Part shown: positions 10,130 through 35,327 of the stretch, in pieces
How positions within the stretch are numbered: position 1 is the first letter of the stretch
Layout of the letters: the number at the start of each line of letters is the position of its first letter
Source of the DNA: Candidatus Limnocylindria bacterium
GTDB lineage: Bacteria > Acidobacteriota > Terriglobia > Acidiferrales > UBA7541
NCBI GenBank assembly: GCA_035490055.1
Contig: DATHIB010000164.1
Coordinates: forward strand, 29,380 to 93,379
Direction: 5' to 3'
Length of the DNA: 64,000 nt
Translations under genes and position numbers: made by a program
The notes under the pieces: model-generated
Told to the model about the DNA's origin: nothing
Database searches by the model: none
What the model saw: the letters and a program-made list of their open reading frames with translations, nothing else

Positions 10130-10204
10130 ATGTGAGTAAGTCGTTTCCCTGGAAAAGAAACTGAGATCTCGTGAGACGGTCCACAGGCTACCCATGAGAT
10201 TCTC

Positions 10205-10266: not shown

Positions 10267-10282
10267 TGGATGGTGAGTTGCT
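10267..10282 (+). promoter_or_regulatory. sigma54-type -24/-12 box for the priming transferase
   Basis: TGGATGGTGAGTTGCT (GG-N10-GC, TTGCT), ~128 bp upstream of 10410. Confidence 0.55.
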
Positions 10283-12125: not shown

Positions 12126-12141
12126 GGGAAACTGGTTTCCT
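12126..12141. promoter_or_regulatory. Candidate enhancer palindrome
   Basis: GGGAAA-CTGG-TTTCCT, 71 bp upstream of the sigma54-like box at 12212. Confidence 0.4.
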
Positions 12142-12211: not shown

Positions 12212-12227
12212 TGGCCGGAACATTGCT
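12212..12227 (+). promoter_or_regulatory. sigma54-type -24/-12 box for wza
   Basis: TGGCCGGAACATTGCT, 35 bp before the TTG start, with a GGAGG RBS between. Confidence 0.6.
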
Positions 12228-14562: not shown

Positions 14563-14578
14563 GGGAAATGGGTTTCCC
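14563..14578. promoter_or_regulatory. Candidate enhancer palindrome (perfect)
   Basis: GGGAAA-TGGG-TTTCCC, 112 bp upstream of the sigma54-like box at 14690. Confidence 0.45.
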
Positions 14579-14689: not shown

Positions 14690-14705
14690 TGGAAGACAAC
14701 TTGCT
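14690..14705 (+). promoter_or_regulatory. sigma54-type -24/-12 box for the wzc operon
   Basis: TGGAAGACAACTTGCT, 58 bp before the 14763 start. Confidence 0.6.
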
Positions 14706-32053: not shown

Positions 32054-33253
32054 CTATTGCCGCACTTTCGATTCGAGAAAAGCTTGGACCTCCGCGGCAA
32101 CTGCATCCCAACTGCGCAATCGCGAGTGCCGTGCAATTTCCTCTCGATTCCACGTCTTGGTGAGAGCCCGTTCCAGTCCCGCCGCGATCGAATCCACATC
32201 TCGTTCGGCAAGAATTCCGAAATCGGAAGACGTGATAATTTCCGGAATTCCTCCCGTGCGCGTTGCCAAAACAGGCGTGCCGCAGGCGAGCGCTTCTGAA
32301 ACGACATTCGGCCAGCCTTCGCGCGAACTCATCAGACAACTAATATTCGCCGCGCTGAACCAGAGACTTAGTTCTTCATTTGGCCTATTGCCCAAGAGAA
32401 AGACGCGGTCTTGCAACTGCTGTTCGCGCACCAATTCTTCAAGTCTCGAGCGCAAGACTCCCTCGCCGATGACATATAGACGGAGTTTTGGTAAGCGCTG
32501 AGCGAGTTCGGCGACAGCAGCTATGAGCAGGTGATGCCCTTTGGATTCGATCAAGGAGCCGACCGAAAGGGCGATGGGTCCTTCTTCCGGCAGCCCTAAG
32601 CTTCTGCGCGATGCCTCGGCATTCTGGGGCTGAAAGCGCTCCACATCTACTCCATTGGAGATCACCCGAATTTTCTCATCGGGTACTCCCAATTGAGTCA
32701 TTTTGTTCTTCAGGTCCGCGGACACCGCAATGGCGCCAGCGGCGTTCCTAAGGGTCCACCGCAGCATCGGGCGAATGAGGGGAAAGGAAGGGTAAACATT
32801 GATGTCCGTGCCGCGCGCTGAAACGATGACTGGCAGGGCCAAGATTCTGCCAAGCAGAACAGCTGCAAACCCATCGGGATAGACGAAGTGAGCATCGATG
32901 CAGTCAAATTTCCTTTCCTTATGCAGCCGCTGCGCGAGTGCCAAGCATCCAAGGAATACCAGCATGCCGTGTAGTGGCATGCTGATACCTGTGGCGAGTG
33001 GATAGCGAGGATGATGGACGCGAATGCCGTCGATCTCCTCCAGGTGCGGGATCAGGCCGAAGTGTTGCCACCGTGTCAAGTGCCACCAAGATGGGAAATA
33101 GGGCACAGGAGCGATTACCTCTAGAGTATTTCCGGGACGGCGCGCGAGGTGGAGCCCACGTTGGTGGATGAAGACTCCCTGAAGGGGGTTGATCTTGTTG
33201 GGGTACAAACTTGTGAACGTCAGGATTCGCAAGCGCAATCCATAGGATCCCAA
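32054..33253 (-). CDS. Glycosyltransferase family 4 (TuaC-like)
   Basis: ILTFTSLYP, DAHFVYPDG, SARGTDIN, REGWPNVVSEALACGTPV. Confidence 0.9.
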   Translation of the reverse strand: MGSYGLRLRILTFTSLYPNKINPLQGVFIHQRGLHLARRPGNTLEVIAPVPYFPSWWHLTRWQHFGLIPHLEEIDGIRVHHPRYPLATGISMPLHGMLVFLGCLALAQRLHKERKFDCIDAHFVYPDGFAAVLLGRILALPVIVSARGTDINVYPSFPLIRPMLRWTLRNAAGAIAVSADLKNKMTQLGVPDEKIRVISNGVDVERFQPQNAEASRRSLGLPEEGPIALSVGSLIESKGHHLLIAAVAELAQRLPKLRLYVIGEGVLRSRLEELVREQQLQDRVFLLGNRPNEELSLWFSAANISCLMSSREGWPNVVSEALACGTPVLATRTGGIPEIITSSDFGILAERDVDSIAAGLERALTKTWNREEIARHSRLRSWDAVAAEVQAFLESKVRQ

Positions 33254-33572
33254 TTCGTTCCCGGAGGGACATCAAATTCGATCGCCCTGATACTTCCTAA
33301 AATTGCGAACGGTGGCATCACGACACCTTTTCGTTCCGTACTAGCGAGACTAGCATATTCGGACTGAGCCTTGACGAGGCTGCCGAGCCGGATCTTCCTC
33401 GCGACGCTATTTTCAGTCAGATCCCCGCACACCCGAGAAGGAAGTTGTTTTCTTATACTCTTCCAGATTGTGCTAAAAGATCCGCAGTTTCTTCGCTGGC
33501 GGCGCAAGCATCATTTCAATATCTTTTTTGTTTACAATCACTTATGGGCCTAGCCGGCTCTAGACCACCTCA

Positions 33573-33588
33573 TGGAAGGCCAATTGCA
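33573..33588 (+). promoter_or_regulatory. sigma54-type box for the deacetylase
   Basis: TGGAAGGCCAATTGCA. Confidence 0.55.
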
Positions 33589-33600
33589 CCATTTCTTCCA
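33585..33600 (-). promoter_or_regulatory. sigma54-type box for the leftward GT4
   Basis: Minus strand TGGAAGAAATGGTGCA. Shares its GC (33586-33587) with the plus-strand box. Confidence 0.5.
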
Positions 33601-33679
33601 AGTTGAAATATGAGCGAGAAACCAGCCGTTTGTACTGCAACAGGTGTCGGAGTCTAATGCTCAGATCTTGTCGCATTTG

Positions 33680-34537
33680 ATGAAAAACGCCCTCACAATC
33701 GATCTAGAAGATTACTTCCACGTCAGCGCCTACGCGGGTAAAGTGCGTATGGAGGAATGGGACTCTTATCCCAGCCGAGTGGAGCAAAACACCGATCGGC
33801 TTCTGGAGTTGCTGGCGGAGCATAACTGCCTGGCGACTTTTTTTGTTTTGGGTTGGGTGGCGGAGAAAAAGCCGGAGGTTGTGGCGCGCGTTGCCGACGC
33901 AGGGCATGAGATCGCCTGCCACAGTATGCTGCACCGACGCATTTTCGATTTGACACCCCAAGAATTCCGCGAAGATACGCGCCGCGCAAAAACCGTCATT
34001 GAGGACACGACGGGAAAGCAAGTTGTTGGATATCGAGCTCCAAGTTTCTCCGTGACAAAGAAATCGTCCTGGGCGCTGGATATTCTTGTCGAAGAAGGAT
34101 TTCAGTACGATTCGAGCATATTCCCGGTAGAGCACCCTTCCTATGGGATTCCCGATGCGCCTCGGACTCCTTACTGGATCTACACCGCCAGCGGACCAAT
34201 TCTAGAGTTCCCCATGCCGACGTTGGCGATGGGATCGAAGAGGTCGCCGATCGGTGGCGGAGCCTATCTACGGCTGCTGCCATATAGCTACACACTCAGA
34301 TCGATCCGGTACTTGAATCAGCACGAGGATTCTCCGGTCTGCGTCTACATTCATCCCTGGGAGCTGGATCCGGAGCAACCCCGGATGGGCGGGAGCCTCT
34401 CGGCGCGAGCGCGACACTATTTCGGTCTAGGAGGGACAGAAACCAAGTTGCGAAAGCTAATCCGAGACGTGGAGTTTTGCCCCCTTGCCGCGCTCGTCAG
34501 CCAACTCAGCCATGTCGAAGACCTTGTGTCGGTTTAG
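33680..34537 (+). CDS. Polysaccharide deacetylase, PEP-CTERM-locus subfamily (DUF3473, TIGR03006-like)
   Basis: NALTIDLEDYFHV, ATFFVLGWVAE, GYRAPSFS, GGGAYLRLLPY, YIHPWELDP. Start at ATG 33680 (GTG 33644 alternative). Confidence 0.9.
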   Translation: MKNALTIDLEDYFHVSAYAGKVRMEEWDSYPSRVEQNTDRLLELLAEHNCLATFFVLGWVAEKKPEVVARVADAGHEIACHSMLHRRIFDLTPQEFREDTRRAKTVIEDTTGKQVVGYRAPSFSVTKKSSWALDILVEEGFQYDSSIFPVEHPSYGIPDAPRTPYWIYTASGPILEFPMPTLAMGSKRSPIGGGAYLRLLPYSYTLRSIRYLNQHEDSPVCVYIHPWELDPEQPRMGGSLSARARHYFGLGGTETKLRKLIRDVEFCPLAALVSQLSHVEDLVSV

Positions 34538-34596
34538 AGCAGCCCGTCCTATAAGTGCCTCATTTCCCGCGTAGTGTGGGTCGAATTGAAGTAATT

Positions 34597-34721
34597 CTTT
34601 AGAATCAGCAAGAACTACCCCTCTACCCCTATATTTGATAAAGAGTGTGGAATTGATTGATTCTAAAAGAATTCACGAAAACGCCTCTGCAAAAGAGTGC
34701 GTAACTGACTGATTCTAAAGG
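34597..34721. repeat. Intergenic ~27-bp direct repeat plus an inverted core copy
   Basis: AAGAGTGTGGAATTGATTGATTCTAAA (34641) and AAGAGTGCGTAACTGACTGATTCTAAA (34693), 52 bp apart. CTGATTCTAAAG also occurs inverted at 34597-34608. Confidence 0.75.
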
Positions 34722-35149
34722 ATCAAGAATTGCATACGACCTCGCGCAAGGAGAGGAGTGCGCAATAGACAGAAAAGAAATAGGATACTTCAAAATTAAG
34801 AATAGGGTTGGGAATTGCCCCCGGAGAGGGCCGCAAATTCTGCGATGACTGGCAGTGCTCCCTAGCAGCAATTATGGCGCACAGGAATGCGAAGTCAAAG
34901 ATCACTCCAGCCATGTAGAGGCGAATTTGCCTCGACGGTGAAGCACCGGAAAGGGATTGCGACTCGAGAAGGCGGGGGTAGAGGCGGGATTCCTGCGCCA
35001 GGTCTCGGACGGTGGCGAGCGAGTGAAAATGGGTGCCGCTAAGGGGAAAGCGGTTGGACGTATCCTTTTGGAGTCCGCCTGGTAATTTGAGCGAATTTTC
35101 CTAAGTCCATATTATACAATGGTTTAGAATGTGCGAGACGAGGACCTGC

Positions 35150-35165
35150 TGGTACGCTGCATGCT
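35150..35165 (+). promoter_or_regulatory. sigma54-type box for the nucleotide-sugar/ABC operon
   Basis: TGGTACGCTGCATGCT, near-canonical TGGCACG-N4-TTGCT, ~160 bp before 35328. Confidence 0.55.
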
Positions 35166-35327
35166 TACTTGAAGGGGAGTGTGGGTGTCAGTCTGACTAG
35201 TCATTATGGTACAGGTTAGACTAGCTAGAACTGGCGCGGCCGACAGTCCGAGCAAGCACAATTCAATTGCTTTCGGTTTCAAGAGTTGGCGGGTTGATGG
35301 AATTCCCGAGAATCCAGGAATGGTGGA

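Follow-up and report, generated by a model that had tools for sequence, protein, structure and literature searches.

The window analysed here is a stretch of 64,000 nucleotides (C164:29380-93379) from a 5.9-Mb assembly of 211 contigs that is most closely related, among named genomes, to Candidatus Acidoferrum/Acidiferrum MAGs (Acidobacteriota). It contains a complete XrtA/PEP-CTERM exopolysaccharide locus, with genes for a TIGR03013 priming transferase, an export protein, a chain-length determinant, an ATPase and a tyrosine kinase, as well as a FemAB-like protein, the stp2 and stp3 transferases and amidotransferases. Two genes of the window face away from each other. On the plus strand lies an XrtA-system polysaccharide deacetylase (33680..34537), which matches TIGR03006 with 355.8 bits against a cut-off of 276.2 and carries Polysacc_deac_1 and DUF3473 domains. 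Its true start is the ATG at 33680, because the orthologues begin with MKNALT, and the gene is apparently monocistronic. To its left, a GT4 glycosyltransferase of 399 aa with Glyco_trans_4_4 and Glycos_transf_1 domains is encoded as a lone minus-strand gene (32054..33253). A preliminary description of this DNA had placed a deacetylase to the right and a GT4 to the left of the site discussed below, and the domain matches uphold both identities.

The ~790 bp on the 3' side of the deacetylase (34538-35327) contain no convincing open reading frame and no Rfam match; an Rfam search of the whole window likewise returned nothing. This gap holds a direct repeat, AAAGAGTGYGKAAYTGAYTGATTCTAAARG, at 34640-34669 and 34692-34721, the copy number of which differs among close relatives, with a single copy in L023, L024 and L026 (L numbers denote loci in related genomes).

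The genome encodes rpoN (401.7 bits against a cut-off of 277.35) and about 15 sigma-54 activators of the AAA+ type. The contig of the window also encodes two of these activators and a histidine kinase, at a distance of 11-16 kb to the left. In this segment (C164:12940-18431), the histidine kinase forms a pair with an NtrC/AtoC-type sigma-54 response regulator, and a small PilZ-like ORF and a receiver-less sigma-54 activator are present as well. The activators, at C164:14185-15666 and C164:17307-18431, are candidate regulators of the exopolysaccharide promoters. A further oriented sigma-54 box is located at C164:12119 on the minus strand.

The intergenic region between GT4 and deacetylase contains the 28-mer TGGAAGGCCAATTGCACCATTTCTTCCA (33573-33600). 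The preliminary description had read it as a -24/-12 box on both strands with a common TGCA, and the sequence is exactly so. On the plus strand, TGGAAGgccaaTTGCA has its GG at 33574-75 and its GC at 33586-87, a spacing of ten bases. On the minus strand, the GG of TGGAAGaaatgGTGCA is the complement of 33598-99, and the GC is that of the plus-strand box. Both strands fit GG-N10-GC, with TGCA (33585-88) common to the two boxes, and the outer arms, TGGAAG and CTTCCA, form a perfect 6-bp inverted repeat with 16 bp between them. The forward box, TGGAAGGCCAATTGCA (33573..33588, plus strand), has a predicted start at ~33599, which would give an 81-nt leader. For the mirror box, TGGAAGAAATGGTGCA (33585..33600, minus strand), the same geometry implies a start at ~33574, so that the two predicted starts are divergent and 25 bp apart. 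The cores of the boxes differ only at -15, which is T in the forward and G in the reverse box. A single match to TGG-N9-TGCA-N9-CCA is found in the window, where 0.05 are expected, and the 5.9-Mb genome has the pattern at two loci.

Orthologue loci were gathered from metagenomes (78) and GTDB (6), together with further contigs. Eleven sequences constitute the box class, namely the window, L023, L024, L025, L026, L105, L106, L027, L047, L049 and L018, and the forward box TGGAAG-N5-TTGCA is retained in all of them (examples are TGGAAGGGCAATTGCA, TGGAGGTGCAATTGCA and TGGCAGGTGAATTGCT). Substitution rates were expressed as parsimony changes per site in an 8-taxon clade. By this measure the forward -12 element changes at 0.14 and the forward -24 element at 0.5 changes per site, compared with 1.04 in the 5' UTR, 1.1-1.9 in neighbouring intergenic DNA and 1.0-1.9 in the flanks overall. 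Correctly spaced boxes are also present before the orthologues in L012, L021, L022, L086, L082, L078, L099, L070, L191 and L192; L191, L192, L070 and L099 are 75-78% identical. Before orthologues that are 55-63% identical, with upstream DNA that can no longer be aligned, boxes occur at -54 to -134 with a different sequence but the right spacing. Boxes of distant orthologues, in which GTGC is the usual form of the -12, are exemplified by TGGCAGCCTTCGTGCT, TGGCAGCTCCCGTGCT, TGGCCCCTTGCGTGCT, TGGCAGCCCTCGTGCT and TGGCAGTTTGCGTGCA. Among orthologues of 45-54% identity from other phyla, a box was found in 4 of 75 usable cases; these are uninformative on the mirror box, because the gene mostly sits within operons.

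Genome-wide, intergenic TGG-N8-TTGCW boxes are barely enriched (69 against 62 expected), and the case for a forward promoter therefore rests on conservation. Four of the genome's 34 gene-oriented intergenic boxes of this form fall within the 64-kb window. Two promoters had originally been proposed for the 28-mer. The plus-strand promoter of the deacetylase gene stands, given its conservation and a correctly spaced upstream element, and we consider the forward box a well-supported candidate for a real, conserved sigma-54 promoter; the proposed minus-strand promoter is not supported, as set out further below.

The upstream element is a 14-bp candidate UAS, that is, a putative enhancer-binding-protein site, with the sequence GGAAGTTGTTTTCT (33440..33453, plus strand). 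It is a degenerate copy of the palindrome GGAAAYNGGTTTCC found elsewhere in the locus and the most conserved upstream block, at 0.36 changes per site (parsimony, 8-taxon clade). In the window it lies 133 bp upstream of the forward box, and its distance to the TGG is 131-136 bp in ten box-class sequences; the eleventh, L025, fell outside the pattern searched for. This distance stays fixed while that between box and ATG varies from 65 to 108 bp. L018 carries GGAAACTGTCTTCC at the UAS position.

Between the candidate UAS and the box lies an AT-rich block (33508..33545, unstranded) with TGTTTACAAT (33529-33538) and CAA-N4-TTA (33535-33544), the latter resembling the core of an IHF site. TACAAT (33533-38) is kept in nearly all relatives of 80-95% identity; TGTKTACAAT has a single match in the window, where 0.07 are expected, and the similar TATACAAT precedes the sigma-54 box at 35150 by 36 bp. 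The block may serve as an IHF-like bending site, or it may be a -10 element of the sigma-70 type.

Other palindromes occur near the boxes of individual relatives. L021 has a hairpin, GCACGGCTTCGTGC, at about -100 to -84 from the ATG and directly downstream of its sigma-54 box, and L012 and L086 have a palindrome, TGGCAAAARTCCTRCCA, at about -257 to -205, some 130 bp upstream of theirs. Both may be enhancer or leader elements specific to their lineages.

The arrangement of palindrome and box recurs within the exopolysaccharide locus. An exact GGAAAYNGGTTTCC at 12127-12140 precedes a box at 12212-12227 by 85 bp, ahead of the export-protein gene, and a second copy at 14564-14577 stands 126 bp before the box TGGAAGACAACTTGCT (14690-14705), ahead of the chain-length determinant. 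Both palindrome-box pairs are also found in G041, a related genome, with spacings of 85 and 127 bp and in surroundings that have diverged. A further pair, GTAAGTCGTTTCC (about 10135-10148) and a box at 10267-10282, is situated ahead of the priming transferase, with a spacing of 129-132 bp that is likewise kept (the G041 comparison of these three sister promoters used loci L109, L107 and L195). Exact GGAAA-N4-TTTCC sites number 13 in the genome, and a box is nearby only at the 12127 and 14564 sites.

A fifth box, TGGTACGCTGCATGCT (35150-35165), has ATGC at its -12 and heads a nucleotide-sugar operon; the SDR/epimerase gene (35328) follows at a distance of 163 bp. Here, TGGYAY-N5-CATGCW is kept in all six relatives, with a variable spacer. 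Its surroundings include a strongly conserved block, GAGTGAAAATGGGTRCCGCTAAGGGGAAAG (35021-35062), ~100-130 bp upstream, and the copy of TATACAAT mentioned above at 35112-35119. All sigma-54 promoters of the locus except the mirror box face right. Together these sites point to a small locus regulon of at least four, probably five, predicted rightward sigma-54 promoters, four of which share the upstream element, in some cases as a degenerate copy.

The box is absent from many relatives. Most of those at 80-89% identity form a short class, in which ~100 bp including the sigma-54 box are missing, GT4 is still divergent and TACAAT lies ~55 bp before the ATG. Loci with TGTKTACAAT include L017, L019, L028-L045 and others. 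On the coding-sequence tree, loci with and without the box are intermingled (L047 against L046; L049 against L017), a pattern that suggests repeated deletion or recombination of the promoter segment. Since many short-class relatives have deleted the whole box, the predicted sigma-54 promoter of the deacetylase is dispensable in some lineages.

A rival reading is that neither box is used, that a sigma-70-type promoter at TACAAT drives the deacetylase and that the GG-N10-GC matches are fortuitous. The retention of TACAAT in nearly all relatives, many box-less ones among them, would agree with this, as would the slight enrichment of the bare box pattern in intergenic DNA. However, the forward -12 and -24 are the slowest-evolving bases of the region, the distance between UAS and box is fixed, non-homologous but correctly spaced boxes stand before the distant orthologues, and the sister promoters share the architecture of UAS plus box, which is maintained in G041. 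A scan of 33254-33680 for sigma-70 consensus elements found nothing convincing. We regard a purely sigma-70-type control of the deacetylase as very improbable.

We consider it likely that a conventional sigma-54 promoter, dependent on an activator, operates at this site and drives rightward transcription of the deacetylase gene. The geometry, conservation and spacing of the elements and the presence of rpoN and activator genes are observed, and from here we infer the choice of activator, the looping and the start site. RNAP-sigma54 would form a closed complex on TGGAAG-N5-TTGCA (33573-33588), and an NtrC-type enhancer-binding protein, possibly one of the candidates named above, would bind GGAAGTTGTTTTCT 133 bp upstream. 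The AT-rich block at 33508-33545 probably aids DNA looping between the two. ATP hydrolysis by the activator would then open the promoter, with transcription predicted to begin near 33599 and to produce the 81-nt leader.

The preliminary description had gone further and suggested an either/or switch between GT4 and deacetylase. In the form considered here, RNAP-sigma54 would bind in either direction, a shared activator would open whichever complex is present, and each cell or promoter copy would express either the deacetylase or a leftward GT4 transcript with a long leader. By sequence this is attractive, as both boxes fit GG-N10-GC around one TGCA and the reverse box falls only slightly short of the forward one. 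The mirror box is also the sole sigma-54-like candidate on the minus strand, no other minus-strand GG-N10-GC with a plausible -12 being present in the intergenic region. A back-to-back leftward box on the left side of the enhancer, as in zraP-zraSR, was considered as well and rejected, as none exists there. Enhancers act from either side of a sigma-54 promoter, so activation of the mirror box from an enhancer on its downstream side is physically possible. Competition between orientations, moreover, is documented at pseudo-symmetric sigma-70 promoters (PMC12825309).

Conservation in orthologues had been named as a check on this idea, and when the comparison is made the palindrome proves not to be conserved, with the right arm broken in most box-class relatives. 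CTTCCA is intact in the window, L023, L024 and L026. It reads CTTCCT in L025, CATAC in L106, CATTTG in L027, CGTCTA in L047, CTTGCT in L049 and CATGAG in L018, and in L105 the arm reads CTATCCA, with a 1-nt insertion that spoils the spacing. The CC that a reverse -24 needs is correct in 5 of the 11 box-class sequences. In L191 and L192 the right arm is missing too, though the TGCA of the -12 is kept there. The mirror -24 (33595-33600) changes at 1.0 per site, which is the background rate (compare the 5' UTR), and is repeatedly lost where the forward box is kept. On the coding-sequence tree the right arm looks ancestral to one clade and has been lost at least two times within it.

The surroundings of the mirror box offer little that would make it a promoter of GT4. 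A UAS-like motif (GGAAA-N4-TTTCC with up to two mismatches) is absent from 33600-33800, the upstream side of the mirror box, and the other sigma-54 promoters of the locus are all rightward. Between the predicted leftward start and the start of GT4 there are 321 bp, and GT4 is still divergent from the deacetylase in relatives without a sigma-54 box, as in those with one. An alternative target, a 95-aa ORF on the minus strand (33220-33507), was rejected, as no gene is called there in relatives and the region has indels that would shift the reading frame. Nor is the mirror geometry enriched across the genome: among 187 TGG-N8-TTGCA sites, CC stands at the mirror -24 in 8 (13.5 expected) and CCA in 1 (3.3 expected). 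Conservation thus sets the plus-strand box above chance, but the coincidence of a second box opposite it is no more than chance would give. For the GT4 promoter or regulatory region, we infer a better candidate than the mirror box in the block GCGAGACTAGCA (33344..33355, unstranded), which lies ~90-100 bp upstream of the GT4 start and is present in box-class and short-class relatives alike.

Taken together, these observations argue against the switch, which we consider improbable. The mirror box is probably accidental and non-functional. It probably came about by coincidence, as TGCA reads identically on both strands and a CTTCCA lies by chance around the start site of the forward promoter. 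It is under no detectable selection and most likely gives rise to no regulated GT4 transcript.

A narrower form of the switch would confine it to the Acidoferrum clade comprising the window and L023-L026. In this scenario the site would be a working bidirectional promoter, with a single enhancer at 33440-53 and competing starts at ~33599 and ~33574. In line with this, the right arm is kept in these closest sequences, with the one change in L025 noted above, while the adjoining spacer varies: in the 8-taxon clade, the six bases between the -12 and the right arm have undergone 12 changes against 6 in the arm. For this reason a weak, lineage-specific constraint on the arm may exist. The TGG-N9-TGCA-N9-CCA geometry has also arisen in an independent lineage, in L099 (78% identity), where TGGCAGGGCACTTGCAGTACTATTACCA at ~1470-1497 has unrelated arms. 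That box stands 32 bp before the ATG, and the forward transcript would be nearly leaderless. Were the narrow form true, expression of the glycan-adding GT4 and of the deacetylase would be anticorrelated, and the site would be a sigma-54 counterpart of the sigma-70 bidirectional promoters of Warman and Grainger. There is in our view only a small chance that the switch operates in this clade.

Alternatively, the mirror box may act as a non-productive decoy, where holoenzyme bound the wrong way round would reduce forward occupancy and so tune the output of the deacetylase while producing no useful leftward RNA. The two binding modes are physically exclusive, because the -12 is shared, and competition is known from sigma-70 bidirectional promoters at which one side is strongly activated (PMC12825309). 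Retention of the arm only in the narrow clade would be compatible with such a role; yet the arm bears no signature of selection, and the effect would be hard to tell from neutrality. A decoy function thus appears quite unlikely to us.

The inverted repeat also invites a reading in which TGGAAG-N16-CTTCCA is an operator for a dimeric factor that overlaps and controls the sigma-54 promoter, as the preliminary description had offered as an alternative. The factor would be a repressor, or the activator itself bound to two GGAAG-type half-sites two helical turns apart. The repeat is perfect over 6 bp, GGAAG and CTTCC resemble the enhancer half-sites GGAAA and TTTCC of the locus, and a second GGAAG-N15-CTTCC is found 133 bp upstream. 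However, the left arm is already accounted for by the -24 element, the right arm evolves at the background rate and is not conserved, and the conserved part of the upstream site is GGAAGTTGTTTTCT and not its distal CTTCC arm. Elsewhere in the 5.9 Mb, TGGAAG-N16-CTTCCA occurs at only two loci, both unrelated. An operator at this position is hence highly unlikely.

The main effect of this analysis is to remove the attractive but unsupported idea of a sigma-54 either/or switch. With a self-complementary -12 such as TGCA, chance alone will occasionally supply a mirror box, and a switch should be called only after conservation has been examined. The conventional rightward promoter that we favour instead places the deacetylase within a wider picture, in which an uncultured soil acidobacterium related to Candidatus Acidoferrum appears to run its XrtA/PEP-CTERM exopolysaccharide locus under sigma-54, without PrsK/PrsR, the system described for Proteobacteria. 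The concrete cis-element and the short list of candidate activators can be used in studying the regulation of matrix production in the abundant soil Acidobacteriota.

Enhancer-dependent sigma-54 promoters with a distal activator site and a bend in the intervening DNA are represented by glnAp2 with NtrC, Pu with XylR and IHF, and nifH with NifA and IHF. The deacetylase promoter resembles these in its GG-N10-GC core, a candidate activator site at a fixed distance of ~130 bp upstream and an AT-rich stretch between them, and in a host genome that encodes rpoN and NtrC-type activators. It differs in that its -24 reads TGGAAG and not TGGCAC, and in that the enhancer motif GGAAAYNGGTTTCC is uncharacterised. 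Furthermore, the host is an uncultured acidobacterium, and the promoter is a prediction from sequence.

Divergent sigma-54 regions with a shared enhancer are exemplified by zraP-zraSR and hyc-hyp of E. coli. As in these, two sigma-54 promoters would serve divergent genes from one intergenic region if the mirror box were active. However, in zraP-zraSR and hyc-hyp two separate outward promoters flank the enhancer, whereas here a single -12 is common to both boxes and the enhancer is on one side only. The geometry can also be compared with that of the pseudo-symmetric bidirectional sigma-70 promoters, where the two orientations of the polymerase exclude each other (PMC12825309; Warman, Grainger and colleagues, PMC10268837); sigma-54 is absent from the main text of PMC12825309. 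There, too, a self-complementary core element is read on both strands and the starts are divergent and a few tens of bp apart (25 bp in our case). The shared element of those promoters is a -10, and in the present site the second orientation is without conservation.

Control of cell-exterior and exopolysaccharide functions by sigma-54 is a described theme (PMC3162934). A related setting is that of the PEP-CTERM-box regulon, in which PEP-CTERM protein genes have sigma-54 promoters with an upstream motif, reported only in Proteobacteria and together with PrsK/PrsR (PMC1569441; PMC9850573); Aquincola pepA is a further case of the PrsK-PrsR-RpoN system (PMC9850573). The present locus shares with it the combination of sigma-54 promoters and an upstream motif inside an XrtA/PEP-CTERM exopolysaccharide system. 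Motif 1 of Haft et al. 2006 has 17 nt, ends in TTTACA and precedes the sigma-54 motif by 32-92 nt (PMC1569441). In the window, TGTTTACA (33529-33536) stands 36 nt before the box, and its comparison with motif 1 covers the TTTACA end, six of the 17 positions. Membership in the PrsR/PEP-CTERM-box regulon was rejected, as neither regulator reaches its cut-off in the genome: the best match to PrsR (TIGR02915) scores 428.8 against 502.6, and that to PrsK (TIGR02916) scores 104.4 against 300 and covers the kinase core only. The PrsK-PrsR-RpoN regulon acts on PEP-CTERM protein genes, whereas the targets here are genes for polysaccharide biosynthesis and export. The conserved enhancer of the present locus also differs in sequence from the PEP-CTERM box, and it is located 131-136 bp upstream. 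The small acidobacterial sigma-54 regulon predicted here, with this enhancer motif, is previously undescribed.
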